Below are positions 1,850 through 51,417 of a stretch of 64,000 nucleotides of DNA, piece by piece. The notes beneath the pieces were generated by a model. That model was given only the letters and a program-made list of their open reading frames with translations. It searched no databases and had not been told where the DNA came from. Where the stretch lies: NCBI GenBank assembly GCA_051882195.1, contig JBJERI010000034.1:252-64251 (forward strand). The letters run 5' to 3'. The stretch comes from Ruminiclostridium sp. Lineage in GTDB: Bacteria > Bacillota > Clostridia > Oscillospirales > Ruminococcaceae. Every line of letters begins with the position of its first letter. Position 1 is the stretch's first letter. The position numbers and the translations under genes are program-made.

Positions 1850-1850
1850 G

Positions 1851-3397: not shown

Positions 3398-3422
3398 GGT
3401 AAAAATCCTTTCTCAATAAAAA

Positions 3423-5213: not shown

Positions 5214-5929
5214 TTTATCCCCTCCCTGTACCTTGCCACGTCAATAACTCCGTCAACCATGCGGGGACGGTAATAAACCGCCTCCGCCCTGTCGGAATAA
5301 ACGGGATTTTCGGGGTCGTTGTTTATAGGTCTGCCACCGTCCTCAAAATTGAGCCGATACAGCATAAAGCCCAAATCGAACTCCCCCTTTAAGCTGTCCG
5401 AAACAAGGTTATAGTCAAAATCCTCCACAAGCTCAATATGCTTTACGGGAAACTCTCTGCACCCTAAGACGGGCTGTCTGAACTGCTGTCCGTTTCTGAG
5501 GCGGCGGAGAATTATATTGTAGTGCTTTTCCTCGTTTTCGTCCTCATGGTCGGACTTTATTCCCGTAAGCTCAAAGTGAAATTCAATGCCGTATTTCACG
5601 TTTTTGAGCAGCATTGCCGCTCGCTGGCTTCTGTCCTCTGCGGCGATTATCTGAGGGGAATCCCCCTTGCCGCTCATCTGGCCCTTTACCGCCGAAAGGA
5701 GCACCTTGCTTTTAACCTCGTTGCGCCTTATGTTCACAAACTCAATGGGACTGAACACCACGATTTTGTCGATAACATAGCGTATTGCAGGCTTCCAGTA
5801 AACGCTTTTCAGCAGCCCCTCCAGCGCTCCGGGGGTAGGCACGTCGTAGCTTACACGCTCGACTTTCATTTCGGGCCGTGTAAAGCAGGCGTAATCTCCG
5901 TCCACCATTATCTTAAATCCGTAAGCCAT
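5207..5929 (-). CDS. cas5: Cas5c (Cas5d), pre-crRNA endoribonuclease of I-C systems
   Basis: The ORF track starts at 5983. MAYGFKIMVDGDYACFTRPE at 5929 follows a GGAGTGAT SD and avoids overlap with cas3. That start gives 240 aa. Confidence 0.9.
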   Translation of the reverse strand: MAYGFKIMVDGDYACFTRPEMKVERVSYDVPTPGALEGLLKSVYWKPAIRYVIDKIVVFSPIEFVNIRRNEVKSKVLLSAVKGQMSGKGDSPQIIAAEDRSQRAAMLLKNVKYGIEFHFELTGIKSDHEDENEEKHYNIILRRLRNGQQFRQPVLGCREFPVKHIELVEDFDYNLVSDSLKGEFDLGFMLYRLNFEDGGRPINNDPENPVYSDRAEAVYYRPRMVDGVIDVARYREGIKC

Positions 5930-5939
5930 TTTATCACTC

Positions 5940-8084
5940 CTAACACATAATATAGTTATCATCACAGCTTTCGCTGTAAACAAAGCCTTTTTTGTTGCTG
6001 TACCTGCTCATATCCTCAAGCACAAGCACTCCGTTTATTTCTCTCACAATGCCCATTTTCAGTATATCGTCAAGCTGATAGCGGTAAACGGAAACGCTGT
6101 ACCTCTGAAGCGCCCGCATAACGGACATTTCCCCGTATTCAAGGCGCTGTACAAGCCCTTTGCTTTTCTCGTCCCTCGGAATAACAATGCCCCTTGTGTC
6201 AGCGCCGATAAGCTCAAAGCTTTCCGCATATTTTCTGAATGGGAGGGAATAAAGTCCCGTGTCGCCAGCCATGCGGTAAATGGAATTTTCCCCGATAAGA
6301 CTGTCGTTGAACTTAAAAATGCGGCTGTAATAATCCTCTATGACTTGGGGAGAGGTAATATCCCTTTCAAGGAGGGACTTGGCAATATTCGCTCTTATCC
6401 CCATATCCCCTTTTAGCCTGTTTTCCGTTTCAAAAACAAAAACCTTGCTGTTATCCCGTTTTCCCTCTCGGTTGCAGCGGCCGCCTGCCTGCAGAATGTT
6501 GTCAAGTCCTGCAAGCTCACGGAAAACCGCCTCAAAATCAAGGTCAACGCCTGCTTCCACAAGAGAGGTGGAAACCACCGTGATTTTCTCCTTGCCAAGA
6601 AGCGCCTTTATCTGCCCTATTACCTCTGAACGATGCTCCGGGGTCATATATGTAGAAAGGTGGAATTTCCTGCCGTTTAGCAGGTCGTAAACCTTATGGG
6701 CGGCTTTTCTTGTGTTTACCACAATAAGTGCGCTGTCGTACCTTTCAGCCTCCGCCGCAATCGCCTCGTAGTCCTTTTCCCCCATATTCACATAGCCGCA
6801 GTTTTTGAAAGCCTCAAAGCTGCTTTTGTCGGTTATCAGCTCCTTTACCTGCGTACCCGGCAGAAATTCACGGAAAAGGGGCTTGTAGTCGGGCATTGTT
6901 GCCGACAGAAACAGCGCCTTACAGCCGAAATATTCCGCAAGAAAGCCCACTCCCCTTATGCAAGGCTTAAGGTATTTCAGCGGCAAAAGGTGCGCCTCGT
7001 CAAAGACAATTACGCTGTCCGCCATATTGTGCAGCTTCCGCAGTCTGCTGCCTTTATAATGGTACAGGCTTTCAAAAAACTGCACCGTTGTGGTGATAAT
7101 AAAGGGGGAATCCCAGTTTTCGCAGTTTCGCTTTATTTTCTCCGCCGTGCCGCTGTTTTCGTCATTGCTGTCGGGAATAAAGTTGGAATGGTGCTGCAAA
7201 ATGTCCACGCTGTCCCCGAAAATTCCCTCGAAAATCTCTGCCGTCTGCTCGATAATGCTGGTATAGGGTATAACGTAGATAATGCGCTTTTTCCCCTCTT
7301 TTACCGCCGCTTTAAGGGCAATTTCCAGGCTGCACAGGGTTTTTCCGCTGCCCGTAGGCATATTGAGAATATTTATTCCCGAAAGGCTTTGGGCGTTTTC
7401 CACCGCCTGCAAAAGCAAATCCCGTCTTGCTTTTTTTACCTTGGTGTCCGCTTTGAAGGAGTTAAGCTTTTCCTCCACAGCAGCCAGCGCCTTTTCAAAA
7501 TCCCCCTTGCCTCCTCTTGACAGGTTTCCGTTGCAGAAACGCTCCGTGTCTATAAAATCTGCGTCCGTAAGGCAGGAGAAAACATATCTTGTGAAAAAGC
7601 AGTAAAGCTCGGTAAGCTCCTCCTTTGAGCCTGCTTTTTTAAGCAGCTCCATAAGCTCCTTTTCATCGGGGAGAGCAATTTCCCATTCCTCTTTATAGGC
7701 GGAATAATCCTCGCTTTTCCGCTTCATTCTTGCCCAAAGAGTGGGCATATCCTCGCTGTCGGCGGCGCTTCCCCCATCGGGCAGCCCCGAATGGTGTCCT
7801 GCAATGCAGTATTCAAGCATGGGTGCGGAAAGGCTGTTTTTGGGAAACAGCGCCTTACATTCCTTTGCGCCGCAGACCGAATGTTCGACCCTTGTGGGAC
7901 TGCCGTTTATGTGCTTCTGAAAGGCGTCGCTGTACTTTCCTATATCGTGCATCAAAGCGGCGGTTTCCGCAAGCTTCGTTAGCCGTCCTGCGGAAAATTC
8001 CTCCGCAAGCCTTGCCGTGCCCTCAAGATGTTCCTTTACCGACTGGATTTTTCCGTCCTCGGTTTTGTGAGCCGTAAATTCCAT
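5940..8084 (-). CDS. cas3: Cas3 HD nuclease / DEAH helicase
   Basis: 714 aa with an N-terminal HD motif (LMHDIGKYSDAFQKH), Walker A (NMPTGSGKT) and a DEAH box (VFDEAH). It is the first gene of the operon. Confidence 0.95.
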   Translation of the reverse strand: MEFTAHKTEDGKIQSVKEHLEGTARLAEEFSAGRLTKLAETAALMHDIGKYSDAFQKHINGSPTRVEHSVCGAKECKALFPKNSLSAPMLEYCIAGHHSGLPDGGSAADSEDMPTLWARMKRKSEDYSAYKEEWEIALPDEKELMELLKKAGSKEELTELYCFFTRYVFSCLTDADFIDTERFCNGNLSRGGKGDFEKALAAVEEKLNSFKADTKVKKARRDLLLQAVENAQSLSGINILNMPTGSGKTLCSLEIALKAAVKEGKKRIIYVIPYTSIIEQTAEIFEGIFGDSVDILQHHSNFIPDSNDENSGTAEKIKRNCENWDSPFIITTTVQFFESLYHYKGSRLRKLHNMADSVIVFDEAHLLPLKYLKPCIRGVGFLAEYFGCKALFLSATMPDYKPLFREFLPGTQVKELITDKSSFEAFKNCGYVNMGEKDYEAIAAEAERYDSALIVVNTRKAAHKVYDLLNGRKFHLSTYMTPEHRSEVIGQIKALLGKEKITVVSTSLVEAGVDLDFEAVFRELAGLDNILQAGGRCNREGKRDNSKVFVFETENRLKGDMGIRANIAKSLLERDITSPQVIEDYYSRIFKFNDSLIGENSIYRMAGDTGLYSLPFRKYAESFELIGADTRGIVIPRDEKSKGLVQRLEYGEMSVMRALQRYSVSVYRYQLDDILKMGIVREINGVLVLEDMSRYSNKKGFVYSESCDDNYIMC

Positions 8085-14153: not shown

Positions 14154-14209
14154 GTTTACTCGCCTTTCGCCCATAGCGAGGGAAAATCAAAAGGGGGCGA
14201 GCAGCCCCC
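14133..14209. repeat. Solo arm module of the GGGGGC-N5-GCCCCC hairpin-chain repeat family
   Basis: Hairpin 14133-14147, then ...CATAGCGAGGGAAAATCAAAA, then hairpin GGGGGCGAGCAGCCCCC (14193-14209). It is collinear with the right arm end at 31555-31609. Confidence 0.7.
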
Positions 14210-14286
14210 AAAATTCACAAAACCTATTGCAAATCCCACAGGAATATGCTATACTTAAATAAATAAAACCAAACGGAGGAATTACT

Positions 14287-14430
14287 ATGAAGCACATTAC
14301 AACTGTAAATAAGGCAAACTTAAAGGAAACTGCTGCCAAGGGCGGCTGCGGCAAGTGCCAGACTTCCTGCCAGTCTGCCTGCAAGACTTCCTGCACAGTA
14401 GCAAACCAGAAGTGCGAAGCTGACAAGTAA
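14287..14430 (+). CDS. SCIFF six-cysteine RiPP precursor peptide (ranthipeptide family), 47 aa. It is absent from the ORF track.
   Basis: GGAGG SD, then ATG. Translation: MKHITTVNKANLKETAAKGGCGKCQTSCQSACKTSCTVANQKCEADK. It contains the hallmark GGCG.CQTSCQSACKTSCTV core with 6 Cys and lies directly upstream of a radical SAM/SPASM enzyme. Confidence 0.9.
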   Translation: MKHITTVNKANLKETAAKGGCGKCQTSCQSACKTSCTVANQKCEADK

Positions 14431-14585: not shown

Positions 14586-15974
14586 ATGGATAAAAGAATA
14601 CACAAATACAAGCAGGGCGAGCATTACATTGTTCTTGACGTAAACAGCGGCGGCGTGCATATTGTGGACAAAATCGTCTATGATATGCTTGACTTTGTTT
14701 CTGCGCCAATGGCGGAGGAAATGCCTGCTGATTTATGCGAAAAAATGAGCGGATACGACAAGGCGGAGGTTGAGGAGTGCTATTCGGAGCTGCTGGAGCT
14801 TTACAAGGCGAAAATGCTTTTCACCGAGGACGAGTACAAAAAATACGCCGATATGACCCTTAATGCGCCTATAAAGGCAATGTGCCTCCACGTTTCCCAC
14901 GACTGCAATCTGCGCTGCGAGTACTGCTTTGCGGAAACGGGAGATTTTGGCACGGGCAGAAAAATTATGCCTGTTGAGGTGGGAAAAAAGGCAATTGATT
15001 TCCTTATAGAAAAGTCGGTTGGCAGAGAAAACCTTGAGCTTGACTTTTTCGGCGGCGAGCCTTTAATGGCGTGGGATACCGTTGTTGAAACGGTGAAGTA
15101 CGCAAGAAGCGTCGAAAAGCAGCACGGCAAGAATTTCCGCTTTACAATCACCACAAACGGAATGCTCCTTGACGACGAGAAAATCGACTACATAAACAGA
15201 GAAATGTCCAACTGCGTTTTAAGCCTTGACGGACGCAAGGAGGTAAACGACAGGATACGCTACACTCCCAATCACAAGGGCTGCTACGATATAATTATGC
15301 CAAAGTACAAAAAGCTTGTGGCAGGCAGAAAAAACGAGGAAAGAACCGATTATTACGTCCGCGGCACTTTCACAAAGTATAATCTTGATTTTGCCAACGA
15401 CGTGCTGCACATTGCGGAGGAGGGCTTCGACCAGTTAAGCGTTGAGCCTGTGGTTACCGATCCGAAATTGCCTTATGCCCTTACGGAAGCAGATTTGCCT
15501 GCAATTTTCGCCGAATACGACCGCCTTTTCGACATTATGGCAAAGGGCGACAAAAAGTTCAACTTCTTCCATTTTATGATAGATTTGCAGCAGGGCCCCT
15601 GTGCAATTAAGCGTTTAAGAGGCTGCGGCTGCGGCAACGAATATGTTGCGGTAACGCCCGACGGCGATATTTATCCCTGTCACCAGTTTGTCGGTATGGA
15701 GGACTGGAAAATGGGCAACATATTTGAGGGTACTGTTAATAAGGAAATCAAGGATTATTTCGCAAAAACCCACATTTATTCAAAGCAGGGCTGCTCGGAA
15801 TGCTGGGCAAGATTTTACTGCTCCGGCGGCTGCAACGCAAACTCCTTCCAGTACGAGGGTGACGTGCAGAAGCCAAACAAGCTTGCCTGCGAAATGCAGA
15901 AAAAGCGTATCGAATGTGGAATCGCCCTTAATGCGCTGAAGCTGCAGAGGAAAAATAAAGAAAATCAACAATAA
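14586..15974 (+). CDS. SCIFF radical SAM maturase (thioether-forming, SPASM domain)
   Basis: 462 aa with CNLRCEYCF (CxxxCxxC) and a C-terminal SPASM Cys cluster (CGCGNEY, CSECWARFYCSGGCNANS). It is adjacent to the SCIFF peptide. Confidence 0.92.
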   Translation: MDKRIHKYKQGEHYIVLDVNSGGVHIVDKIVYDMLDFVSAPMAEEMPADLCEKMSGYDKAEVEECYSELLELYKAKMLFTEDEYKKYADMTLNAPIKAMCLHVSHDCNLRCEYCFAETGDFGTGRKIMPVEVGKKAIDFLIEKSVGRENLELDFFGGEPLMAWDTVVETVKYARSVEKQHGKNFRFTITTNGMLLDDEKIDYINREMSNCVLSLDGRKEVNDRIRYTPNHKGCYDIIMPKYKKLVAGRKNEERTDYYVRGTFTKYNLDFANDVLHIAEEGFDQLSVEPVVTDPKLPYALTEADLPAIFAEYDRLFDIMAKGDKKFNFFHFMIDLQQGPCAIKRLRGCGCGNEYVAVTPDGDIYPCHQFVGMEDWKMGNIFEGTVNKEIKDYFAKTHIYSKQGCSECWARFYCSGGCNANSFQYEGDVQKPNKLACEMQKKRIECGIALNALKLQRKNKENQQ

Positions 15975-24368: not shown

Positions 24369-24397
24369 GAAGGTATGAAAAATGCGTGATTGTGCGG

Positions 24398-24690
24398 TTA
24401 AAAAGCAGTTATTCAGGACCGCCGAGCAAGCCTGTTTTAAATCATACCAAGGTAAAGGCTCGGCGGAATTGCAAGGGGGGGAGCCTCCCCAATGCGTTTT
24501 TAAAAAGCACTTGTTCCGCCCCCGCCGAGCAAGCCTGTTTTAAATCATACCAAGGTAAAGGCTCGACGGAAAAGCCAAAGGCGGCATAACAATTTAATTA
24601 AAAATCACCTGTTCCGCCCCCGCCGAGCAAGCCTGTTTTAAATAAACAAAAGTGAAAGGCTCGGCGGAACAGCAGGGGGGAGCATCCCCC
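24398..24690. repeat. Tandem array of three ~100-nt units, each carrying a CCGCCGAGC...GCTCGGCGG hairpin with a ~30-nt loop
   Basis: Units start at 24398, 24500 and 24598 (TTAAAAAGCA / TTAAAAATCA). Hairpins are at 24419-24466, 24522-24569 and 24620-24667. Loops 1 and 2 are identical (AAGCCTGTTTTAAATCATACCAAGGTAAAG). Units 1 and 3 end in GGGGGGAGC(C/A)TCCCC hairpins. Confidence 0.8.
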
Positions 24691-26928: not shown

Positions 26929-27045
26929 GGGGGCTGCTCGCCCCATAGGGGTAGTCCCTCGCTATTGTCGAAAGGGGCTGCCCCCTTTCCACCAACTTAT
27001 AAGCCACAAAACCACGCTCAGGGGTTCAAGGGGGCGGCAGTCCCC
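26929..27045. repeat. Solo arm of the hairpin-chain repeat family
   Basis: GGGGGCTGCTCGCCCC (26929-26944), then CCCTCGCTATTGTCGAAAGG, then GGGGCTGCCCC, then a CCAACTTATAAGCCACAAAACC spacer, then GGGGGCGGCAGTCCCC (27030-27045). It is collinear with 30613-30730. Confidence 0.7.
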
Positions 27046-28688: not shown

Positions 28689-30191
28689 ATGAGCAAGGAA
28701 CATTCTTATATCGCAATAGACTTAAAGTCCTTCTATGCCTCGGTGGAGTGTGTGGAAAGGGGACTTGACCCTCTTGACGCAAATCTTGTGGTTGCCGACC
28801 CCACGAGGACGGAAAAAACAATCTGCCTTGCGGTTTCTCCCGCTTTAAAGGCTTACGGAATAGGCGGCAGAGCAAGGCTTTTCGAGGTTGTACAAAAGGT
28901 GCGGAAAATCAACGCAGATCGCAGCTATTCCGCTCCCAAGCACACCTTTACGGGAAAATCATTCAGCGACAGGGAGCTTAAAGCAAATCCCGCCCTTGAG
29001 CTTGACTATATCGTTGCGCCGCCCCAAATGGCGCACTATATGGACGTAAGCACACAGATTTACAACATTTATCTCAGATATATCGCCCCCGAGGACATTC
29101 ACGTTTATTCAATAGACGAGGTTTTCATTGACGCCGCGCCCTACCTTAAAACCTACAGGGTTACTCCGAGAGGACTTGCTATGCTGCTTATAAAGGCGGT
29201 ACTTGCGGAAACGGGAATTACCGCAACGGCAGGAGTGGGCACAAATCTTTACCTCTGCAAGGTGGCAATGGACATTGTGGCAAAGCACATTCCACCCGAT
29301 GAAAACGGAGTGCGTATTGCGGAGCTGGACGAAATGTCCTACCGCCGTCAGCTTTGGAATCACCGTCCCCTTACGGATTTCTGGCGGGTGGGAAAAGGCT
29401 ATGCCGCAAAGCTGGAAGCAAAGGGGCTTTACACAATGGGTGACATTGCCCGCTGCTCTCTTGGCGGCAAGGGGGATTATTACAGCGAGGATATGCTGTA
29501 CAAGCTTTTCGGGGTAAATGCGGAGCTGCTTATCGACCACGCATGGGGCTTTGAATCCTGCACCATAGCCCACATAAAGGCTTACCGCCCCGAAAGCAGC
29601 AGCCTAACCTCGGGGCAGGTGCTGCAAACGCCCTATACCTTTGAAAAGGGCTTGCTTATCGTCCGTGAAATGGCAGATCTGCTCACCCTTGATATGGTGG
29701 AAAAGGGAGTTGTCGCCGACCAGCTTGTGCTTACCGTGGGCTATGACAACGAGGGAGCGGAAAATTACAGCGGAGAAACCGTCCTTGACCCCTACGGCAG
29801 AAGTATTCCCAAATCCGCCCACGGCTCGGCAAATTTAGGCAGATTTACCTCCTCCACAAGGACTATTGTGGAAGCGGCGGCGGAGCTTTACGGGCGCATT
29901 GTGAACAGAGATTTGCTGATACGCAGAATGTACGTTGTGGCAAATCACGTTACAAGCGAGCGTTTCATAAAGGAAGAGCCCAAGCAGCTCGATTTCTTCA
30001 GCGACTATACCGAATTTGACGAGGAGCAGAGCCAACTTGAGCAAAGGGAAAGCCGTGAGCGGAACGTTCAGCAGGCAATAATCAGAATAAAGCATAAATA
30101 CGGCAAAAACTCGGTGCTTAAGGGAATGAACTTAGAGGAGGGCGCAACTACCGTTATGCGCAACGGACAAGTGGGAGGTCACAAGGCATGA
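28689..30191 (+). CDS. Y-family (UmuC/ImpB-like) translesion DNA polymerase
   Basis: MSKEHSYIAIDLKSFYASVECVERGLDP..., then YSIDEVFID. 500 aa from the ATG at 28689 (AAAGGAGG SD). Confidence 0.9.
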   Translation: MSKEHSYIAIDLKSFYASVECVERGLDPLDANLVVADPTRTEKTICLAVSPALKAYGIGGRARLFEVVQKVRKINADRSYSAPKHTFTGKSFSDRELKANPALELDYIVAPPQMAHYMDVSTQIYNIYLRYIAPEDIHVYSIDEVFIDAAPYLKTYRVTPRGLAMLLIKAVLAETGITATAGVGTNLYLCKVAMDIVAKHIPPDENGVRIAELDEMSYRRQLWNHRPLTDFWRVGKGYAAKLEAKGLYTMGDIARCSLGGKGDYYSEDMLYKLFGVNAELLIDHAWGFESCTIAHIKAYRPESSSLTSGQVLQTPYTFEKGLLIVREMADLLTLDMVEKGVVADQLVLTVGYDNEGAENYSGETVLDPYGRSIPKSAHGSANLGRFTSSTRTIVEAAAELYGRIVNRDLLIRRMYVVANHVTSERFIKEEPKQLDFFSDYTEFDEEQSQLEQRESRERNVQQAIIRIKHKYGKNSVLKGMNLEEGATTVMRNGQVGGHKA

Positions 30192-30610
30192 GCGTTTATT
30201 ACGACGGCAGGGACAGCTACGAGGACATTATAAATCTGCCCCGCCACGTTTCAAAAACAAGACCCCCAATGAGCCAAAGCGCACGGGCGGCTCAGTTTTC
30301 CTCCTTTGCGGCTCTTAAGGGCTACGATGACGAGGTAGCCGAGGCGGCAAGGCTTACCTGCAAAAAGCGGCAGCTTACCGACGACCAAAAAGCCGCTCTT
30401 GATATGAAGCTTAACCTGCTTATCGAAAAGGCGGCGGAAAGACCCTTTGTGGAGATTTGTTATTTTGTGCCCGACGAGAAAAAGGAGGGCGGCTTTTACG
30501 CCACCCTCTGCGGAGAATTCCGCCGTTTTGACGAGGCGGAGCGGAAAATTTGCCTGACGGACGGGACGGTAATAGGTATTGACGACATTTTCAGTATGGG
30601 GGAAAGGTGA
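30188..30610 (+). CDS. YolD-like protein, the accessory partner of Firmicute Y-family polymerases
   Basis: 140 aa with a 4-nt ATGA overlap with the polymerase gene. Size and position match the uvrX-yolD and yqjW-yqzH pairs. The family call is from memory. Confidence 0.7.
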   Translation: MSVYYDGRDSYEDIINLPRHVSKTRPPMSQSARAAQFSSFAALKGYDDEVAEAARLTCKKRQLTDDQKAALDMKLNLLIEKAAERPFVEICYFVPDEKKEGGFYATLCGEFRRFDEAERKICLTDGTVIGIDDIFSMGER

Positions 30611-30962
30611 TTGGGGGCTGCTCGCCCCCTTTTGATTTGCCCTCGCTATTGTCGAAAGGGGTTGCCCTTTTGGACCCGTTTTGTGTTTGTTTGGATTTGT
30701 AAGTTGGTTTTGAGGGGGCTGCTCGCCCCCTTTTTTACCCCTCGTTTTTTGTGTTTGTTGTGGTTTATATGTTGGTTGAAAGGGGGCTACTCGCCCCCTC
30801 AAAACCAACATAAAAATCAAAACCCACACCAAGCACAAACATAATAAAAGAACAAAAAAAGCAAAAACATCTCCACTTCCACCAACAACTTTAAAAAAGC
30901 CACAACACCGACCGCAATTCCAAAAAACAAAATCCTTTTTAGAAAAGTGCCGCCAAGCACTA

Positions 30963-31071
30963 CACCCCTTGAGACTTGCGAAGCAAGTCTCTCAAGCCCC
31001 TCGCGGCAATTGAGCGAGTGCCTTTCTTTCCCCATTTCTTTGGGCAATCAAAGAAATGGGCGAGGGGTTAT
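30963..31071. other. Conserved three-hairpin core, copy A (candidate structured RNA or DNA element)
   Basis: CACCCCTTGAGACTTGCGAAGCAAGTCTC...CCCATTTCTTTGGGCAATCAAAGAAATGGGCGAGGGGTTAT. Confidence 0.4.
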
Positions 31072-31284
31072 CGCTCCGCTATAACAAGAAATAAGGCTAT
31101 CAAGGGGGCGAGCAGCCCCCTCAAAACCAACATAAAAATCAAAACCCACACCAAGCACAAACATAATAAAAGAACAAAAAAAGCAAAAACATCTCCACTT
31201 CCACCAACAACTTTAAAAAAGCCACAACACCGACCGCAATTTCAAAAAACAAAATCCTTTTTAGAAAAGTGCCGCCAAGCACTA

Positions 31285-31396
31285 CACCCCTTGAAACTCG
31301 CCAAAGGCGAGTTTCACAAAGCCCCTCGCGGCGAATGAGCGAGTGCATTTCTTTCCCCATTTCTTTGGGCAATCAAAGAAATGGGCGAGGGGTTAT
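31285..31396. other. Conserved three-hairpin core, copy B
   Basis: H1 at 31293-31315, H2 at 31325-31343, H3 at 31356-31385. The alternative closing helix is 31322-31329 with 31385-31392. Confidence 0.4.
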
Positions 31397-31609
31397 CGAT
31401 ACCTTATAATCAAATCCAACGCAATCAAGGGGGCGAGCAGCCCCCTTTAAACCAAGTCGAAAATTACAAAAACACAAAACGGAATAAAAAGGGGTGAGCA
31501 GCCCTCTTTTAAACCAACCCCAAAAACCAAACCAAACTCAAAACGGGGTCAAAAGGGGCAACCCCTTTCGACTATAGCGAGGGCAAATCAAAAAGGGGCG
31601 AGCAGCCCC

Positions 31610-32722
31610 TTAATTATTTTTAACTATTCGTTTCGCATAGACCTCGCAGGTGGCCGCATTCATTGTAATAACATAATAGTCTCCGTTAAGGTATGTAAAG
31701 ATAAGGTCGCACAGTCGCACATCGTCGCCGAATTCCTCCGGTGAATGAGCCTCGCCGTCAATGCCTATAAAGGTTTCGTAGGGGGCATACAGCTTGTATT
31801 CGGGAATTTCGTCAACGAAGTAGGTGGTATCGTCAATGTACATAAGGGCAACCGTCTGGCATATTTCAATGCTGAACAGACCGTTGTTTATGAGAATCTG
31901 GTTAAGTCCCTGTGTGCGGATTGCCTTTGCGTCAACCTTGCCCGTGTAATACTCGTAAACCTCGTCCCCGATAACCATACGGACAAAAGGCTCTGCCTCC
32001 TTGCCGTCGGATATTACCGCATACAAATCCGACTCAATGCGCAGGAAAGGCTGACCCGAGCGGTCGAAAAAGGTAACGCTTTCCGCAACTGCGGTATAGC
32101 CCACGTGCTTCTGCTGCCACTTTTTGAAGGCTTTTTTCTCCTTTTCAAGCTGACTGTCGCTTACCTTGGTGAACTTCATATTGTTGAACTGCTCAATAAG
32201 GCTGTTTACATATTCCTCGTTTATAAAAAGCGCCGAGTCGTCATGGTAGTATTTGCTCAGCGAAACCGTTTCGGGAGTGTATGAAGCGGTTAGAATTTTT
32301 GCAGGATCAAGCCTTGGAGTATAGGTTTCGGGACCCGACTTTGTGGTTTCGGCGGGAGTGGTAGTGGCTGCTGTGGTTGCTTCGGTGGGAGGAGCGGTTA
32401 CCGCCTCGGGAGTGGTGGTAACGGCGATTGCCGTTGTGGTTTCGGTAACGGGAGCGGTTGTCGTAACCGGAGCAGTGGTGGTAACAGCCGTTGTTGTGGC
32501 TGCGGTAGTAGTGGTTGTTTTCGGCGTGGTGGTAACGGCGGTAGTAGTTGCGGAGGTTTGGGCAGATTCGGTGAATGGTGGCTCGCTTTCGGCAGTCGAC
32601 GTTTCCGTATGGGAATCCGTGAGAACAGGCTCCGTCTGCTGTTCTGTATTATCAGTGCAGGCGGTGAAAAGCAAAGCGATTGCCGTTATCAGAGCCAATA
32701 TATATAATCTGATTTTAGCCAT
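31610..32722 (-). CDS. Lipoprotein of unknown function with a Thr/Ala/Pro-rich linker
   Basis: Lipobox LLFTAC after a signal peptide. About 110 aa of T/A/P low complexity is followed by a globular C-terminal domain. Confidence 0.75.
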   Translation of the reverse strand: MAKIRLYILALITAIALLFTACTDNTEQQTEPVLTDSHTETSTAESEPPFTESAQTSATTTAVTTTPKTTTTTAATTTAVTTTAPVTTTAPVTETTTAIAVTTTPEAVTAPPTEATTAATTTPAETTKSGPETYTPRLDPAKILTASYTPETVSLSKYYHDDSALFINEEYVNSLIEQFNNMKFTKVSDSQLEKEKKAFKKWQQKHVGYTAVAESVTFFDRSGQPFLRIESDLYAVISDGKEAEPFVRMVIGDEVYEYYTGKVDAKAIRTQGLNQILINNGLFSIEICQTVALMYIDDTTYFVDEIPEYKLYAPYETFIGIDGEAHSPEEFGDDVRLCDLIFTYLNGDYYVITMNAATCEVYAKRIVKNN

Positions 32723-39817: not shown

Positions 39818-39823
39818 ATTGTT

Positions 39824-40345
39824 GGGGGCTGCTCGCTCCCTTTTTTTACCCCCGTTTTGTGTTTGTTTGTATTTGTGAGTTGGTGGAGAGGGGGCTACTC
39901 GCCCCCTTTCAACCAGCATAAAAACAAAGCAAAAAAAGCAACAACATTACCACTTCCGCCAACAACTTTAAAAAAGCATAAACCCCTATTGCAGTTACCA
40001 AAAACAAAATTCTTCTACACCAACATTTGACAACCATAAACACCCCTTGAAACTCGCAAAGCGAGTTTCACAAAGCCTCTCGCGGCGCATGAGCGAGTGC
40101 ATTTCTTTCCCCATTTCTTTGGGCAATCAAAGAAATGGGCGAGGGGTTATTGCTCCACTATAACTAAATCCAAGGCTATCAAGGGGGCGAGTAGCCCCCT
40201 TTTAACCAACTTAAAAACCCAAACCAACATAAAACGGTGGGGCAAAAAAAGGGGGCTGCTCGCCCCCTTACAACCAACTTACGAAAACATCAAACAAAAA
40301 AGGGTTTGAAAAGGGTACTCCCTTTTCGCTCGGCGGCGTGAAGCC
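39824..40345. repeat. Second large copy of the hairpin-chain foldback repeat, carrying a single core unit
   Basis: Hairpins at 39824-39840, 39890-39906, 40183-40199 and 40251-40267. The unit 39907-40199 is homologous to 30799-31120 and 31121-31445. Confidence 0.8.
40041..40150. other. Conserved three-hairpin core, copy C
   Basis: CACCCCTTGAAACTCGCAAAGCGAGTTTC...CCCATTTCTTTGGGCAATCAAAGAAATGGGCGAGGGGTTAT. Confidence 0.4.
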
Positions 40346-40349
40346 CCCA

Positions 40350-40384
40350 ACAACAAAAAATCCGTCCAAAAGGACGGATTTTCT
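40350..40384 (-). terminator. Intrinsic terminator after the GH130 gene
   Basis: AAATCCGTCC-aaaa-GGACGGATTT, followed on the minus strand by TTTTTTGTTG. Confidence 0.75.
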
Positions 40385-40418
40385 GCTGTATGAAGATTTT
40401 GAAGATTTGGAAATTCAA

Positions 40419-43861: not shown

Positions 43862-44491
43862 ATGACAATTCAGCATTATCCCTTTCAGCCCGTGGAATTA
43901 CCCTATGACTATGACGCCCTTGAACCCTTTATTGACGCCCGAACGGTTGACATTCACTACAACAAGCACTACAAGGGCTATATCGACAAGCTGAACGGCG
44001 CTCTCAAGCCCTATCCCCAGTATCACCAATGGACGCTGAAAAGGCTTATTTTCGAGTGCGGCTATCTTCCCCGTGAAATAAGGCAAACCGTTCTGCGCAG
44101 CGCAGGAGGCGTTCTCAACCACGAGCTTTATTTTTACTCAATGTGCAAGGGGAAAATAATCAGTCCCTTTATGTCGGAGCGTATCTCAGCCTGCTTCGGC
44201 TCGGCGGAAAATATGGAAAACCGCCTTGCGGAGGCGGCGGAAAGCGTTTTCGGCTCGGGCTATGCCGCCCTTATCGCCACAAAATGCGGCTGTCTGCGCC
44301 TTGTGAAGTTCTCAAATCAGGACACCTCCTATTTGCAGGAGGGTTTCCCTCTTCTGCTTATCGACGTGTGGGAGCACGCATACTATCTTAAATATACCTA
44401 CAACCGCAAGGCTTATGCGGAAAACTGGCTCAACCTCATAAACTGGGAATTTGCCGAAAAGCAGTACAGGGAGCTGTACGGTGAAAGATAG
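43862..44491 (+). CDS. sodA: Fe/Mn superoxide dismutase
   Basis: LPYDYDALEPFIDARTVDIHYNKHY and DVWEHAYYLKY motifs. Confidence 0.93.
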   Translation: MTIQHYPFQPVELPYDYDALEPFIDARTVDIHYNKHYKGYIDKLNGALKPYPQYHQWTLKRLIFECGYLPREIRQTVLRSAGGVLNHELYFYSMCKGKIISPFMSERISACFGSAENMENRLAEAAESVFGSGYAALIATKCGCLRLVKFSNQDTSYLQEGFPLLLIDVWEHAYYLKYTYNRKAYAENWLNLINWEFAEKQYRELYGER

Positions 44492-44743
44492 GGGCTGTAA
44501 GCCCCTTCAGACTGTCGATAAACCCTGAGAACAGGGTTTATCTTAGTGAATATTGAATATTGAATAGTGAATAATTGAGGTGTGCCCTTCGGGCAGGGAT
44601 TTAAAAAGCGAGCTATAATCACATTTTCCGGAATAATCGGCGAAGCCGATACCACAATTATTCATTCTTCGTTATTCAGTATTCAATATTCATTTCTTGT
44701 CGAAAAGACTTTTTTGACAAGCTGTAGGGGCTGTAAGCCCCTT
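44489..44743. repeat. 236-bp hairpin-rich unit bounded by a 19-bp direct repeat that duplicates the sod terminator hairpin
   Basis: TAGGGGCTGTAAGCCCCTT occurs at 44489-44507 and 44725-44743. Internal inverted arms at 44546-44577 and 44655-44693 are built from TGAATAT-type heptamers. Small hairpins lie at 44518-44541, near 44583-44595 and near 44633-44649. Confidence 0.7.
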
Positions 44744-44767
44744 TTTTGATTTTTTTCCTCAAAACCC

Positions 44768-44796
44768 TTGAAATTGAAAATATTATGGTGTATAAT
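44768..44796 (+). promoter_or_regulatory. Near-consensus sigma-A promoter for tRNA-Arg
   Basis: TTGAAA, 17-nt spacer, TGtATAAT-type extended -10 (TATAAT at 44791-44796). Confidence 0.65.
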
Positions 44797-44812
44797 ATAT
44801 AAGACTATTTAT

Positions 44813-44889
44813 GCGCTTATAGCTCAGCAGGATAGAGCGGCCGCCTCCTAAGCGGCAGGCCGGAGGTTCGAATCCTCTTAAGCGCGCCA
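44813..44889 (+). tRNA. tRNA-Arg (anticodon CCU), CCA encoded
   Basis: Hand-folded. Acceptor GCGCTTA/TAAGCGC. D arm GCTC-AGCAGGATA-GAGC. Anticodon arm GCCGC-CTCCTAA-GCGGC. T arm GGAGG-TTCGAAT-CCTCT. Ends in GCCA. Confidence 0.9.
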
Positions 44890-44962
44890 TATTTTTGTAA
44901 GGCCTAAGGGCTTTACGCCCGAAAAATACACCTTTATAAATATAATCAGAAATTGGTTGACT

Positions 44963-46409: not shown

Positions 46410-47429
46410 ATGAAAGATCAGCTTCAGAAAATAAAGGAGCAGGCGTTAAGTCAGATTGAGGCCTGCAAGGAAGTCAAGGAAATTGACGACTTACGAGTTA
46501 AGGTGCTTGGCAAAAAGGGCGAGCTTACCGCTATATTAAAGCAGATGGGCAAGCTTTCCGCCGAGGAAAGACCGGTTATCGGACAGCTTGCAAACGAGGT
46601 AAGGGAAAAGCTGGAAAGCTCCATTTCCGAAAAGCTTGCAGCCCTTAAATCCAAGGCTGTTGAAATGAAGCTTGCAGCCGAAACTGTTGACGTTACAATG
46701 CCCGGCACAAAGCACGAGCAAGGCAGACGTCACCCGCTGAACACAGTCCTTGAGGAAATGAAGGACATTTTCAGAGGAATGGGCTATACCGTTGTGGACG
46801 GCCCCGAGGTTGAGGAAACAAAGTACGTTTTCGATATGCTGAACACCGACGAGGGACACCCCGCAAGAGATCCCCAGGATACATTCTACATCACAGACAA
46901 AATTCTGCTTCGTACACAGACCTCTTCCGTGCAGATAAGGACAATGCTTAAGGAAAAGCCTCCTATCGCTATTATCAGCCCCGGCAGAGTTTACCGCTCC
47001 GACGCTGTTGACGGAACACACTCCCCTATTTTCCACCAGTGCGAGGGTCTTGTAATCGACAAGAAAATCACCTTCGGCGACCTTAAGGGCACTCTGGAAA
47101 TGTGGGCAAAGCGTCTTTACGGCGACAATGTAAAGCTGCGCTTCCGTCCTCACCACTTCCCCTACACAGAACCCTCCGCAGAGGTTGACTTACAGTGCTT
47201 CAAGTGCGGCGGCAAGGGCTGCTCTCTCTGCAAGGGCGAGGGCTGGATTGAAATGCTTGGCTCAGGCATGGTACACCCCCAGGTGCTTATTAACTGCGGC
47301 ATTGACCCTGAGGAATATACAGGCTTTGCTTTCGGTATCGGTCTTGAAAGAATTACAATGATGAGATACGCAATAGACGATATGAGATTGCTTTACGAGA
47401 ACGATTCAAGATTCCTGTCACAGTTCTGA
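46410..47429 (+). CDS. pheS: Phenylalanine--tRNA ligase alpha subunit
   Basis: 339 aa with class II aaRS motifs ([18 protein letters not shown]). Confidence 0.96.
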
Positions 47430-47441
47430 AAAAGGTGAAAT

Positions 47442-48266
47442 ATGAACGCTGAAAAAAAGAAAGCCATAGAAATTGTAGTTGATGCAAGCATAAAAAGCTT
47501 TGCAGCAGGACTGACAAGCAGATATGAAAAGGAATTAAACTGTGACGACGGCGTTATAAATATGAAGAAAAACAACTGCTTCATTGCGGAATTGGGCGAA
47601 GAATTTATGTTCTATTCTGCCTTTGTTCGAAGCTTTGACAGCAGCTTTGGAAATATCCTTGAACAGATAGGAAACGACATAGCAAAATTATCCTACGAAG
47701 TCAAAGGAGATATTACCTCATTTATCCTGCCTGACCAGACGCAGCGGATTGCCTCTGTGCTTGACAGTTATCTTGACCACACGTCAACTCCGTCAATATC
47801 TCACTACTCAAATTTTGATGTTATTTATCCTAAAAATACGGTAAGCTTTGAAAGAACTCACGTTACCGATAATTATTTTTATAACCCCAAAACCAATGAG
47901 CATTATATAATTGAGCTTAAAGCGTCCGGAGATTTGGACAATAAGAAAGCAAGAGCAGAAAAGTCCGCATTATTGGAAGAATATTTTTTGCTGAAAAATT
48001 CTCTAAAGGACGATAAGACCGCCAAGATATACATATATTTTGGCACGGCGTATAATAAATACGGAGAGAATAATTATTGGAAGCAGGAAAGAGTAAGACA
48101 GTTTTTCGCAGAAGATGAACTGCTTATCGGCAAGGATTATTGGAATTTTGTATGCAACGATAAAGATGGTTTTGATATCATTTTCAATCAATATAAAATT
48201 TCAGCAGGGAAAATAAAAGAAGCGTTGGAGAAAATAAAAAAGATGTATTTTGATAATGGAAATTAA
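47442..48266 (+). CDS. Putative type II restriction endonuclease (PD-(D/E)xK-like)
   Basis: 274 aa and AT-rich. Candidate catalytic motif ...VTDNYFY...HYIIELKASGD (D...ExK). It overlaps the downstream methyltransferase gene by 11 nt. The family assignment (possibly TdeIII-like, from memory) is unverified. Confidence 0.6.
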   Translation: MNAEKKKAIEIVVDASIKSFAAGLTSRYEKELNCDDGVINMKKNNCFIAELGEEFMFYSAFVRSFDSSFGNILEQIGNDIAKLSYEVKGDITSFILPDQTQRIASVLDSYLDHTSTPSISHYSNFDVIYPKNTVSFERTHVTDNYFYNPKTNEHYIIELKASGDLDNKKARAEKSALLEEYFLLKNSLKDDKTAKIYIYFGTAYNKYGENNYWKQERVRQFFAEDELLIGKDYWNFVCNDKDGFDIIFNQYKISAGKIKEALEKIKKMYFDNGN

Positions 48267-48987
48267 AGTAAACGAAATCGACAAAAAACTGCTGGTTAAT
48301 TCCGATTGTTTTTCTGTTTTAAAAAATCTTCCCGATAAGTCAGTTGATTTAATTCTGACAGACCCGCCCTATAACCTTGCAAAGTACAGTACAGGAAATA
48401 TGTCCTTTGATTGGCGCTCAGATATCAACAACGATGTTGCGGAATGGGATTTAGTTGAACTTAAGCCAACTGATTTGGCGGAAGAATTTAAAAGAATTCT
48501 GTCGCCAAAAGGAAATATATTTATATTTTGCTCTTATAATCTGATTGGCGAATATCACAAGGCTTTCGACCCCATATTCGACACATTTCAGTTTATGGTA
48601 TGGCATAAAACAAACCCTGTTCCAAATTTCAGAAAGTCATCGTTTCTCAACAGCTGTGAGCTGATTGTTTCTTGTTGGAATAAAGGACACACTTGGAATT
48701 TTACAAATCAAAAGGATATGCACAATTTTATTGAAAGCGGTATTTGCATGGGAAAGGAAAGAATAAAGGACAAAAACGGTAAAAATCTTCACCCAACACA
48801 AAAGCCTGTTTCAGTTTTAAAAAAAATAATCGAAATAGCGTCTAACCAAAACGATATTGTGCTTGACTGCTTTAACGGAGTAGGAAGTACCGGAGAGGCG
48901 GCGTTAAGTCTTAATCGGAGATATATCGGAATTGAAATAGACAAGCAGTATTTTGACGCAACAGCTGAGCGCTTAAAAAATTATTAG
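48256..48987 (+). CDS. Beta-class DNA amino-methyltransferase (N6-adenine or N4-cytosine)
   Basis: Motif IV LILTDPPYNL precedes motif I DCFNGVGSTGEAA (circularly permuted beta order). There is also an HPTQKP motif. 243 aa. Confidence 0.9.
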   Translation: MEIKVNEIDKKLLVNSDCFSVLKNLPDKSVDLILTDPPYNLAKYSTGNMSFDWRSDINNDVAEWDLVELKPTDLAEEFKRILSPKGNIFIFCSYNLIGEYHKAFDPIFDTFQFMVWHKTNPVPNFRKSSFLNSCELIVSCWNKGHTWNFTNQKDMHNFIESGICMGKERIKDKNGKNLHPTQKPVSVLKKIIEIASNQNDIVLDCFNGVGSTGEAALSLNRRYIGIEIDKQYFDATAERLKNY

Positions 48988-49017: not shown

Positions 49018-51417
49018 ATGGATTTATCTATGAAATGGCTTAACGACTACGTTAAAGCCGATATGCCAATAAAGGACTTTGTTGCCGCAATGACCATGAG
49101 CGGCTCAAAGGTTGAAACCTACAAATCACTTTCCGAGCCTTTATCAAAGGTTGTTGTAGGAAAGATAACAAAAATCGAAAAGCACGCCGACAGCGAAAAG
49201 CTGTGGATTTGTCAGATTGACATCGGCGAAAAGACCGTTCAGATCGTTACTGCGGCGCAGAACTGCTACGAGGGCGCAATTGTTCCCGTTGTTCTTGACG
49301 GCGGCGTTGTAATCAACCGCAAGGAAGGCGGCTCAATGAAGATTACAAAGGGCAAGCTTAGAGGCGTAATGAGCGAGGGCATGATGTGCAGCTTTGAGGA
49401 GCTGGGCATGGAAAATTCCGACTTCCCTTACGCAACTCCCGACGGAATACTTATCTTCAACGAAGACCCCGACATTGACAAGTTTGAGCTTGGAATGGAC
49501 GTAACAAAGGCTGTGGGCATTGACGATACACAGGTTGAATTTGAAATCACAAACAACCGCCCCGACTGCCTTTCCGTTTTAGGCCTTGCAAGAGAGGCAA
49601 GCGCTACCTTTGACCTGCCCCTTAACTACAAAAAGCCCCAATTCAAAGGCATTGACTACGACATTAACAAGGACGTTTCCGTTACCGTTGAAAACACGCA
49701 GCTTTGCTCACGCTATATGGCAGGTCTTGTAAAGAACGTTAAGATAGGCCCGTCCCCGAGGTGGCTGGCGGAAAGACTTCGTGCAAGCGGCGTCCGTGCA
49801 ATAAACAACATCGTTGATATTACCAACTTCGTAATGCTTGAATACGGTCACCCAATGCACGCATTCGATTTAAGATATGTTGAGGGCGGCAAAATTGTTG
49901 TCCGCAACGCAAAGGATGGCGAAACCCTTAAGCTCCTTGACGAGGCGGCAGAGCCGGTTAAGCTTTCACCCGAAATGCTGGTTATTGCAGACGAGAAAAA
50001 GCCAATGGCTGTTGCAGGCGTAATGGGCGGCGAATATTCGGGTATATGGGACGATACAACCACCGTTGTATTCGAGGCTGCCTGCTTCGACGGCGTATCC
50101 GTAAGACGTACTGCAAAGAAAATCGGTGAAAGAACAGAGGCAAGCTCACGCTTTGAAAAGCGCCTTGACCCCGCAAACGCTGAGGAGGCGCTCCACAGAG
50201 CATTGGAGCTGGTTGAAATGCTTGGCTGCGGCGAGCCCTGCAAGTCAATTATCGACTGCGACCACTCAAATAAAGAGCCCTTCACATTAAAGCACGACTA
50301 CAAATGGATTAACGAGTTTTTAGGCTCGGACATCAGCGAGGAGGAACAGGTTTCAATCCTCAAAAAGCTTGGCTTCGGCTATGACAACGGCGTTGTTACA
50401 GTGCCCCCTTACAGAATCGACATTGAACGTCAGTGCGACCTTGCGGAGGAAGTAGCGAGAATTTATGGCTACAACAACATTCCTACCTCTATCCCAAGAC
50501 TTTCAAGCCAGAGCAAGATGACTCCCGTACAGGCTTTCCAGCAGAAGCTTACGGAAATCATGATTGCAGAGGGCTGCTATGAAACAATGACCTTCAGCTT
50601 TATTTCTCCAAAGTGGTATGATAAAATCAATCTGCCCGAGGAGGAAAAGCGCTCCGTTGTTATCACAAACCCTCTTGGCGAGGACACAAGCGTTATGAGA
50701 ACAACAATGATTCCGTCTATGATGGAGCTTGTTGTACGCAACATAAACAACAGAAACCTTGCAGGCCGTTTCTTTGAAATAGGCAGAGTTTATAAGCCAA
50801 TGGAAAGCGTTGACCAATTGCCTGTTGAGGAGGACGTACTGGCAATTGCTCTTTACGGCGAAAAGGAGGACTTCTTCTCCTTAAAGGGTATTGTGGAGGA
50901 AATACTGGACAAGACAGGCATTGAGGGCAAGTTCACACAATGCACCACAAACAAGACCTTCCATACGGGAAGATGCGCTGAGCTTACAGCAGGCGGCAAG
51001 ACAATCGGTACTCTTGGCGAAATTCACCCCCTTGTTTGCGAAAACTACGGCGTTAAGGACAGAATTTACATTGCCGTGCTTAAGCTTGCTCCCATGATTG
51101 AAGCACAGAACACCGACATAAAGTACAAGGCATTGCCTAAGTTCCCCGCAATGACAAGAGATTTAAGCCTTGTTTGCCCCGACGAGTTAAGCTCGGGCGA
51201 AATTATTGACATAATCACAAAAACAGCTAAAAATCTCGAGCAGGTAACACTGTTCGATATGTATAAGGGCACAGGCGTTCCCGAGGGCAAAAAGTCCCTT
51301 TCCTACAAGCTTGTACTTCGTCATAAGGACAGAACAATGGAAAATGACGAGGCTGACAAGACCGTTGAAAAGGTGCTGAAAGCACTGGCTGAAAAGGATA
51401 TTACCTTAAGATCGTAA
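49018..51417 (+). CDS. pheT: Phenylalanine--tRNA ligase beta subunit
   Basis: 799 aa. MDLSMKWLNDYV N-terminus, with tRNA-binding, B3/4, B5 and FDX-ACB regions recognisable. Confidence 0.96.
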   Translation: MDLSMKWLNDYVKADMPIKDFVAAMTMSGSKVETYKSLSEPLSKVVVGKITKIEKHADSEKLWICQIDIGEKTVQIVTAAQNCYEGAIVPVVLDGGVVINRKEGGSMKITKGKLRGVMSEGMMCSFEELGMENSDFPYATPDGILIFNEDPDIDKFELGMDVTKAVGIDDTQVEFEITNNRPDCLSVLGLAREASATFDLPLNYKKPQFKGIDYDINKDVSVTVENTQLCSRYMAGLVKNVKIGPSPRWLAERLRASGVRAINNIVDITNFVMLEYGHPMHAFDLRYVEGGKIVVRNAKDGETLKLLDEAAEPVKLSPEMLVIADEKKPMAVAGVMGGEYSGIWDDTTTVVFEAACFDGVSVRRTAKKIGERTEASSRFEKRLDPANAEEALHRALELVEMLGCGEPCKSIIDCDHSNKEPFTLKHDYKWINEFLGSDISEEEQVSILKKLGFGYDNGVVTVPPYRIDIERQCDLAEEVARIYGYNNIPTSIPRLSSQSKMTPVQAFQQKLTEIMIAEGCYETMTFSFISPKWYDKINLPEEEKRSVVITNPLGEDTSVMRTTMIPSMMELVVRNINNRNLAGRFFEIGRVYKPMESVDQLPVEEDVLAIALYGEKEDFFSLKGIVEEILDKTGIEGKFTQCTTNKTFHTGRCAELTAGGKTIGTLGEIHPLVCENYGVKDRIYIAVLKLAPMIEAQNTDIKYKALPKFPAMTRDLSLVCPDELSSGEIIDIITKTAKNLEQVTLFDMYKGTGVPEGKKSLSYKLVLRHKDRTMENDEADKTVEKVLKALAEKDITLRS

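Follow-up and report, generated by a model that had tools for sequence, protein, structure and literature searches.

In pneumococci, the small interspersed repeats BOX, RUP and the terminator-like SPRITE are modular, clustered and folded, and they are enriched between convergent genes; a BOX element has the layout A-Bn-C with a variable number of internal modules (PMC3049150). Here we analyse a three-hairpin element that occurs in three copies in a 64-kb stretch of DNA from Ruminiclostridium sp. (64,000 nucleotides of contig JBJERI010000034.1, hereafter the window). The copies, A at 30963-31071, B at 31285-31396 and C at 40041-40150, lie exactly where an earlier note made from the letters alone had placed them, and the sequences quoted there for the hairpins H1, H2 and H3 are correct. 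This core of ~110 bases is the best-kept part of a repeat unit of ~320 nt. The core most likely falls within the known class of small interspersed bacterial repeats, and the best reading is that it belongs to a new, lineage-restricted family of modular interspersed repeats. We propose, at about an even chance of being right, that the element is a DNA-level modular interspersed repeat, with hairpins that function in cis and also serve as terminators or insulators.

BOX and SPRITE are the closest described analogues, with REP/BIME arrays as a further one. Like BOX, the repeats described here are modular, being built from an M1 module, a variable number of short units and a full-length unit. Both BOX/SPRITE and our family are tightly folded (by prediction), clustered, over-represented between convergent genes and confined to one species group, and both give rise to spuriously called open reading frames (ORFs); the look of a Rho-independent terminator is common to SPRITE and to our short units. 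However, there is no sequence similarity, and the terminal modules of BOX pair like inverted repeats, whereas the units described here run head-to-tail as direct repeats with hairpins at their boundaries. Neither BOX nor SPRITE has a counterpart of the 110-nt three-hairpin core and its compensated stems.

REP sequences are short G+C-rich palindromes of 20-40 nt with a GTAG-type 5' motif, and they form arrays in both orientations at gene 3' ends. REP/BIME elements occur in Proteobacteria in high copy number, are lineage-specific, and are associated with termination or mRNA stabilisation and with RAYT transposases. Our repeats resemble them as G+C-rich palindromes with a conserved asymmetric loop or flank that are stacked both ways at gene 3' ends, and also in the association with termination or mRNA stabilisation, the high copy number and the lineage specificity, but differ in their unit length of 66-320 nt, their long GT-rich bodies and their Firmicute host. 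As in REP/BIME- or BOX-like repeats, we found many short palindromic modules of variable number and orientation that are intergenic and lie mostly at gene 3' ends; as in structured elements in general, helices are kept by double-sided changes while the loops vary. The Bacillus cereus group harbours the interspersed repeats bcr1-bcr18 of 100-400 nt, some of which have a conserved predicted RNA structure with compensatory changes and some of which are transcribed. They, too, are Firmicute repeats, but several bcr families carry inverted terminal repeats and TTTAT-type target duplications, which were not seen here, and there is no sequence relation because nothing in Rfam matched.

The core can be recognised by the pattern GAGCGAGTGC-N30-50-GCGAGGGGTTAT, running from H2 to the 3' end, which has three matches in the window, namely A, B and C (0.00 expected from shuffles). 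Covariance-model scores are 137.7 bits for A, 140.3 bits for B and 144 bits for C. When a covariance model built from five copies was run on the window, no copy beyond these was found; a 15-bit match at 63738-63844 is unrelated to the core. All core copies are given on the minus strand of the window, which is the GT-rich strand and is named as such without a claim about the active strand. Core A carries the H1 allele GAGACTTGC/GCAAGTCTC together with H2 and H3, and in core B the hairpins occupy 31293-31315 (H1), 31325-31343 (H2) and 31356-31385 (H3). The full-length units, also on the minus strand, extend from boundary hairpin to boundary hairpin. Unit A (30782-31120) consists of the core and a 150-nt tail that is GT-rich on the minus strand; unit B (31104-31445) is in direct tandem with A at a period of 322-325 nt, the hairpin 31104-31120 being common to both; unit C (39890-40199) has a tail with a 31-nt deletion. 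Outside the core the unit is strongly strand-asymmetric, with 66% A+C on the plus strand. Tandem Repeats Finder reported neither the 322-nt tandem nor the 66-nt units described below, because the copies are too diverged or gapped.

Folded as RNA, both strands of the core reach -49 to -53 kcal/mol, compared with ~-31 kcal/mol in dinucleotide shuffles, none of 200 of which folded as well (z -5.0 to -6.0), and folding with DNA parameters had the same outcome (z -6.3 and -6.4). Covariation was counted on an alignment of nine copies, A, B and C from the window and D, E, F, G, H and I from other contigs, whose consensus fold consists of three independent hairpins. Across the 28 pairs of these hairpins 98.8% of the cells are paired, and 6 of the 28 pairs show double-sided changes, in 13 cells (three pairs in H1, two in H2, one in H3); neither figure was matched in any of 500 column shuffles. 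In a control with the partners slid by 1-3 columns, the paired cells fell to 32-52%. The three hairpins are real and evolutionarily maintained. The covariation described in the earlier note from three copies persists in the larger alignment, and its account of the individual stems was also accurate for A, B and C. In H1, A differs from B and C at two pairs, both sides being changed; in H2 the loop alone differs; H3 is a 12-bp stem without change. Across the nine copies H1 has three alleles, GAGACTTGC, GAAACTCGC and AAAACTCGC, each paired with its exact complement. The arms of H2 read CTCGC/GCGAG in seven copies and CCTGC/GCAGG in I, while E is a hybrid with one wobble and one mismatch. H3 shows an A-T to T-A change in E and a paired C/G insertion in F and G. 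The loops vary freely with the exception of the H2 loop UCA-NNN-GCC, whose flanks are invariant in all nine copies around a central triplet that takes seven different forms. A four-way-junction closing stem, AACCCCU/AGGGGUG on the minus strand, was seen with five copies; it was dropped by the nine-copy consensus and is lost in E, H and I.

All 21 pairs of H1 and H3 are Watson-Crick in each of the nine copies, with zero G-U, and the A-T to T-A change in H3 is a double transversion for which a wobble intermediate is impossible. Wholly Watson-Crick stems and a double transversion fit maintenance at the DNA level, for example by template switching in palindromes, and are also compatible with selection at the RNA level. 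Taken to its end, the former argument makes the compensated stems a product of mutation without function, one arm being copied to the other by template switching in inverted repeats, a mechanism that has been documented for hairpins (PMC8794818). The lack of wobble pairs, the double transversion and the paired C/G insertion that F and G share in H3 are consistent with it. However, it leaves unexplained why the core is so much better conserved across genomes than other parts of the unit and why the flanks of the H2 loop are invariant, and it is compatible with the DNA-repeat reading rather than an alternative to it. As a full account we consider it improbable.

The genomic surroundings point to repeats that are anchored at the ends of genes. 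The core copies lie in two gaps between convergent genes, 30611-31609 between a 140-amino-acid ORF (which follows a DinB-like gene) and a 370-amino-acid ORF, and 39818-40418 between an ECF S-component gene and a GH130 gene. These gaps are filled by units of ~66 nt, each of which closes with a GGGGGC-N5-GCCCCC hairpin. Such hairpins number 11 in the 64-kb window, where 0.02 are expected; they occur at five intergenic sites, and 9 of the 11 are in the two convergent gaps. Read on its GT-rich strand, an array starts 0-10 nt past a stop codon, or, at the GH130 locus, past the gene's own terminator, and proceeds from an M1 module (hairpin, TTTTGATTTG, CCCTCGC...) through short units (hairpin, T-run, ACCCCTCG, GT-rich body) to one or two full-length units, the latter on the minus strand in both regions. 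Plus and minus arrays face each other and meet at a junction hairpin, 30782-30798 in the first gap and 39890-39906 in the second, which is why a repeat finder reported long inverted repeats (I1-I10). In the first gap the plus array begins with an M1 module at 30611-30682, 1-3 nt after the stop of the gene 30188-30610, and continues with short unit material of the ~66-nt type at 30714-30798, up to the junction. The minus array begins with an M1 module at 31541-31609 that abuts the stop of the gene 31610-32722 and is 91% complementary to 30614-30682; two short units follow at 31429-31540 (hairpins 31429-31445 and about 31486-31509) and lead to units B and A. In the second gap, a short unit of the plus array lies behind the ECF S-component gene at 39824-39906, with hairpins at 39824-39840 and at the junction, and a degenerate M1 module with two short units occupies 40183-40345 on the minus strand, behind the terminator of the GH130 gene and into unit C (hairpins 40251-40267 and 40183-40199).

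Modules without the three-hairpin core are also present. One M1 module (26929-26988, plus strand) lies directly 3' of the stop of a 73-amino-acid ORF and is followed by a unit in opposite orientation (to 27047). Another, isolated M1 module (14163-14211, minus strand) is situated between the own terminator of leuB and a SCIFF-like gene. This neighbour is a short Cys-rich ORF at 14288-14429 (MKHITTVNKANLKETAAKGGCGKCQTSCQSACKTSCTVANQKCEADK) followed by the gene of a radical-SAM/SPASM enzyme at 14586-15974, and the pair presumably corresponds to a SCIFF peptide with its maturase. M1 modules and short units keep both ends of the full-length unit (hairpin, T-rich linker and CCCCTCG at one end, GTTGGTT and hairpin at the other) and are missing the interior, with M1 retaining an H2-like CTCGC...GCGA piece; by these remnants, both look like internally deleted derivatives of the full-length unit. 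The order of M1 module, short units and full-length unit recurs on two contigs of other origin (L002 and L031). A run of short units leads into the core on a third (L004), and a fourth (L030) carries two full-length units that face each other.

Terminator-like scores in the window regions fall on the strand of the upstream gene. A G+C-rich hairpin with a T-run on that strand, as in intrinsic terminators, is present at 30613, 31593-31611, 31486-31509, 39824 and 40249-40269, while the closing hairpins of units A, B and C practically lack a T-run and do not qualify. In the region of copy F, six of nine terminator-like sites are on the GT-rich strand.

Six further core copies (D-I) were recovered from other metagenome contigs. 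Among 185,579 species-representative genomes of GTDB the core pattern has one match, copy D, which lies at a contig end (L004) of a metagenome-assembled genome of uncultured Clostridia and adjoins a divergent gene. Copy E comes from a pig-gut relative (L002), where it occupies the same locus as C between convergent 3' ends; copy F (L029) is next to a divergent SIR2 gene; copies G and H are the facing units of L030; and copy I (L031) stands behind an M1 module and two short units and follows a gene end. Exact-pattern scans for the core gave 0 matches in JGI metagenomes and 0 in viral contigs, and blastn against plasmids and phages found no match; one match of the hairpin pattern in viral contigs is an unrelated phage terminator. 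In neighbouring species, whose GH130 proteins are 87-94% identical, ~130 kb surrounding these genes contain neither a core nor an array of hairpin units, with one isolated match to a loose hairpin pattern (L022), and the synteny differs from that of the window. The window GH130 protein corresponds to NCBI MGN0596075.1, and its homologues are labelled Oscillospiraceae or Ruminococcus, the nearest Oscillospiraceae. An exhaustive HMMER search with the 77-amino-acid minus-strand ORF of unit B as query found ten called ORFs of 47-70% identity, all of them singletons on metagenome contigs of 0.5-1.3 kb, which are translations of diverged repeat units; three of these contigs supplied copies F to I. 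A word-indexed search of a 5.8-billion-protein set with chimeric six-frame queries had missed these ten copies, and when queries are short and of low complexity, a negative from the indexed search is unreliable. The family is confined to a single lineage of uncultured Clostridia from the pig gut.

Within this lineage the copies turn over rapidly. The short-read contigs of the same strain all stop at the repeats (L003, L005/L006, L013 and L014), which is the usual sign of multi-copy sequence. The relative that carries copy E is 95.5% identical to the window over a 4.2-kb aligned flank of genes and spacers, and its array starts at the same base; yet the same locus holds different modules and a different core allele, core E being about 79-84% identical to C with other H1, H2 and H3 alleles. 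The copies are mosaics. Between A and B, identity is 99.4% for the tail, 87.5% for the core and 55.6% for the 3' flank, whereas between B and C it is 94.6% for the core and 58% for the tail; the ORF-derived sequences combine the hairpin alleles in yet other ways. These relations fit gene conversion or replacement among many paralogous copies and not a single-copy gene under purifying selection. We favour a model in which the units multiply and homogenise at the DNA level. Arrays would grow beside an existing hairpin, through unequal crossing-over or the action in trans of an enzyme whose gene lies elsewhere, and whole hairpin alleles would be exchanged between copies by gene conversion. The hairpins may be cis structures, formed in single-stranded DNA or in a transcript, that are needed for the multiplication process or are tolerated as terminators or insulators between convergent genes. 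A recombinase-recognised DNA structure, which the earlier note had named as one possibility, comes close to this preferred reading.

Several observations weigh against a DNA-level repeat. The full-length unit has no terminal inverted repeats and no target-site duplication, also at the starts of arrays, and no clean empty site was found. A Pfam scan of the window proteins, covering nearly all ORFs of at least 90 amino acids, detected no transposase, HUH/Y1 enzyme, RAYT, reverse transcriptase or recombinase. A purely selfish repeat should be best kept at its ends, but here the interior is, namely the core, the invariant UCA...GCC on either side of the H2-loop triplet and, within the tail, a block of 25 nt; such a pattern suggests that the interior itself has a function, for instance as RNA. 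In copies F and G the homology stops after a separate terminator-like hairpin that forms their end, and a TATAAT-like box lies 6-7 nt upstream of the onset of strong conservation at ATAACCCC. The features of a miniature inverted-repeat transposable element are absent: the units are direct, bounded by hairpins and without target-site duplication, and the inverted repeats I1-I10 are whole facing arrays, not unit ends.

A comparison with IS200/IS605 bears on the same question. The ends of IS200/IS605 elements and of PATEs are formed by strand-specific hairpins without inverted terminal repeats or target duplication. IS200/IS605 elements insert beside a short target, which is TTGAT for ISDra2. Our units are alike in having strand-specific hairpins and neither inverted terminal repeats nor target duplication, and a hairpin followed by TTGAT precedes eight of the nine, although TTGAT may be merely part of the T-rich tail. 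In contrast to the mutually similar, near-terminal hairpins of IS200/IS605, H1, H2 and H3 are dissimilar and interior. Boundary hairpins are found at both ends of A, B and C, while F and G end in a different hairpin, and no TnpA was present among the window proteins scanned.

The strongest rival to the DNA-repeat reading is that the units are sibling small-RNA genes of ~300 nt on the GT-rich minus strand, which we regard as a possible but doubtful explanation. Transcription would start ~7 nt past the TATAAT-like box at ATAACCCC, H3, H2 and H1 would form the 5' domain, a GU-rich tail with the conserved 25-nt block would follow, and the next hairpin would mark the end of the RNA; short units would represent decayed copies in which the terminator has survived. 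Sibling small RNAs that are both tandem and dispersed have precedents in LhrC and Qrr. Within genomes and between them, conservation of the core far exceeds that of its flanks, the stems of the core covary while its loops vary, and the invariance of the H2-loop flanks also speaks for an RNA. A minus-strand motif TTGAT(A/T)-N14-TATA(A/G)N keeps its exact 14-nt spacing in eight of nine copies despite a variable spacer sequence; its promoter-like representative TTGATT-N14-TATAAG at 31403-31428 lies just upstream of core B, and the same motif lies upstream of A and C. Hairpins with T-rich tails upstream would insulate the unit, and F and G have their own terminator-like hairpin. However, the 14-nt spacer is too short for sigma-A, the same genome having TTGAAA-17-TATAAT upstream of tRNA-Arg, and scans for canonical sigma-70 promoters found none on either strand of the units. 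The motif at 31403-31428 doubles as the T-rich tail of the preceding hairpin. Moreover, the near absence of a T-run from the hairpins that close A, B and C, the difference of about 20% between copies at the same locus of a 95%-identical strain, the loss of the closing stem in E, H and I and the lack of G-U among the 21 pairs of H1 and H3 all speak against a small RNA.

A related proposal, which we rate as rather unlikely, is that the full-length unit is an RNA-only "master copy", that is, a new structured RNA or single-stranded DNA form of ~300 nt that would seed units behind terminator hairpins in trans or in cis. Its parts would be the three covarying hairpins, a loop with a hypervariable triplet between invariant flanks and the conserved tail block. 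Such seeding would explain why arrays start at stop codons and grow head-to-tail without a protein gene inside.

An RNA from the opposite, CA-rich plus strand is still less probable. It would form H1 and a long stem AGCCCCUCGC/GCGAGGGGUU that encloses H3, and its C-rich stretches might base-pair with ribosome-binding sites. In its favour, the fold of the plus strand contains the long stem and has a slight edge in stability, three mismatches of this stem on the GT-rich strand (in C, F and H) become G-U wobbles on the plus strand, and copy D has a G(CUUG)C loop there. Against this, promoter-like motifs are absent from the plus strand, no T-runs follow the hairpins in that direction, covariation of the long stem is no better than chance, and transcription would have to pass two terminators of the upstream gene.

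The alternative pairings of the core, on which the earlier note had based a likeness to riboswitch or attenuator expression platforms, deserve a separate look. Such pairings can physically form, and one of them is part of the minimum-energy fold of the plus strand. Their evolutionary maintenance is not borne out, because the alternative helix CCCCTCGC/GCGAGGGG is equalled in 109 of 500 shuffles and has mismatches in five copies and 6 unpaired cells; in copy C, CCCCTCGC reads CCTCTCGC. The note had also pointed out that CATTTCTTT occurs twice, giving the 3' strand of H3 two partners. This holds in part: the first CATTTCTTT reads CCTTTCTTT in copy A, and the second does not track the compensatory change of H3 in copy E. 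A riboswitch or attenuator with mutually exclusive folds thus has physically possible pairings in its favour, but these pairings do not covary, a tandem arrangement is unsuited to a leader, and the positions of the copies are wrong. Convergent 3' ends enclose A, B, C and E, a divergent gene adjoins D and F, G and H face each other, and I comes after a gene end; the window copies stand behind terminator-like hairpins, two of them in tandem, and in none of the six loci that hold the nine copies is there a co-directional downstream gene. There was also no Rfam match to either region even at E-values up to 10, the best matches having 14-26 bits against thresholds of 43-376 and being mostly microRNA hairpin models. 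This reading is hardly credible any longer, and the element is not a riboswitch or attenuator. The earlier note had matched the core to no known RNA family, and the Rfam scan of the window likewise found nothing but two tRNAs. Hammerhead, twister and hairpin ribozymes, integron attC sites and group II intron fragments were rejected on inspection of the sequence and for lack of an Rfam match, a retron msr-msd for lack of a reverse transcriptase nearby, a type III toxI-like array for lack of a toxin gene, and a CRISPR-like array since its "spacers" are homologous to each other.

The LDR and SIB/QUAD loci of E. coli are type I toxin-antitoxin systems with modules of 140-530 nt, a structured leader and a short hydrophobic ORF. 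The arrangement here recalls them in its ~320-nt modules, two in tandem and a third dispersed in long intergenic gaps, and in its combination of a short hydrophobic ORF with a structured leader. A hydrophobic peptide of 42-48 amino acids might be encoded on the minus strand, the core serving as a 5' leader that hides the ribosome-binding site AAGGGG via the 5' CCCCU. We consider this very unlikely. It is true that the frame …AIGVxAFLKLL…, found by HMMER, is open in all seven full-length copies, that the ten ORFs found by HMMER are called in it, that AAGGGG followed 3-5 nt on by GTG or ATG comes after H1 in A, B, C and F, and that AAGGGG is paired with the 5' end in the minus-strand fold. However, another frame is almost equally open, which GT-rich DNA would lead one to expect. 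Neither the candidate start nor the ribosome-binding site is conserved (GTG is replaced by GCG in G, and AAGGGG by AAATTGGG in H and I), C and I differ by a +1 indel in the frame, and the C-terminal third of the ORF uses different reading frames in different copies. Between B and C the codon changes are distributed 2/5/8 over positions 1/2/3 and only 3 of 11 changed codons are synonymous, hence there is no synonymous excess. The candidate peptide has no Pfam match, all called ORFs are singletons, and the covariation of H1 rewrites a longer overlapping ORF. Unlike in LDR and SIB/QUAD, neither an ORF start nor a ribosome-binding site nor a C-terminal frame is conserved, and an antisense promoter was not found. 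No frame in the unit is a conserved gene. The statement of the earlier note that the ORFs crossing the core are not conserved in copy C applies to the minus-strand ORF of 76-77 amino acids, not to the plus strand, where two frames are open across the core in A, B and C.

The window as a whole consists of chromosomal housekeeping DNA and a type I-C CRISPR-Cas locus. The latter occupies 1-8084, with an array at 1-360 (32-nt repeat, period 66-69) followed on the minus strand by cas2, cas1, cas4, cas7, csd1/cas8c, cas5d and cas3. In a relative that is 95.5% identical (L001, 1-2130), a type I-C CRISPR array of more than 30 repeats abuts a superoxide dismutase gene; its counterpart in the window, 44492-44960, holds about 450 nt of other sequence and tRNA-Arg. 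Synteny between the two breaks at a GGGGC...GCCCC hairpin, and the flank of this hairpin is similar to the hairpin-TTGAT stretch found in our repeats. In the same segment (44491-44745), two GGGGCTGTAAGCCCC hairpins bracket AT-rich inverted repeats of ~35 nt (TGAATATTGAATATTGAATAGTGAATAATTG and its complement) that flank ~90 nt. This segment lies just upstream of the tRNA-Arg promoter and may represent a structured RNA or a small inverted-repeat element. Another repeat family, unrelated to the first, occupies 24397-24673; it comprises three tandem units of ~100 nt, each a long hairpin CGCCGAGC-N30-GCTCGGCG, and is situated between the convergent genes of a CDP-alcohol phosphatidyltransferase and a GGDEF protein. 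Genes of a TdeIII-like type II restriction endonuclease and an N4/N6 DNA methylase lie at 47442-48987 between pheS (46410-47429) and pheT (49018-51417).

Small interspersed repeats are well described in a few cultured pathogens, but hardly in gut Clostridia, where they silently break metagenome assemblies. The full-length unit described here is hardly ever assembled, which probably explains its absence from Rfam and nearly all reference genomes. Among such repeats, the family is unusual in combining clean evidence of stem maintenance with fully modular, terminator-anchored arrays. If the full-length unit is transcribed, it would represent a new class of structured RNA; if it is not, it would show that textbook covariation occurs in recombining repeat DNA and is by itself no proof of a riboswitch.

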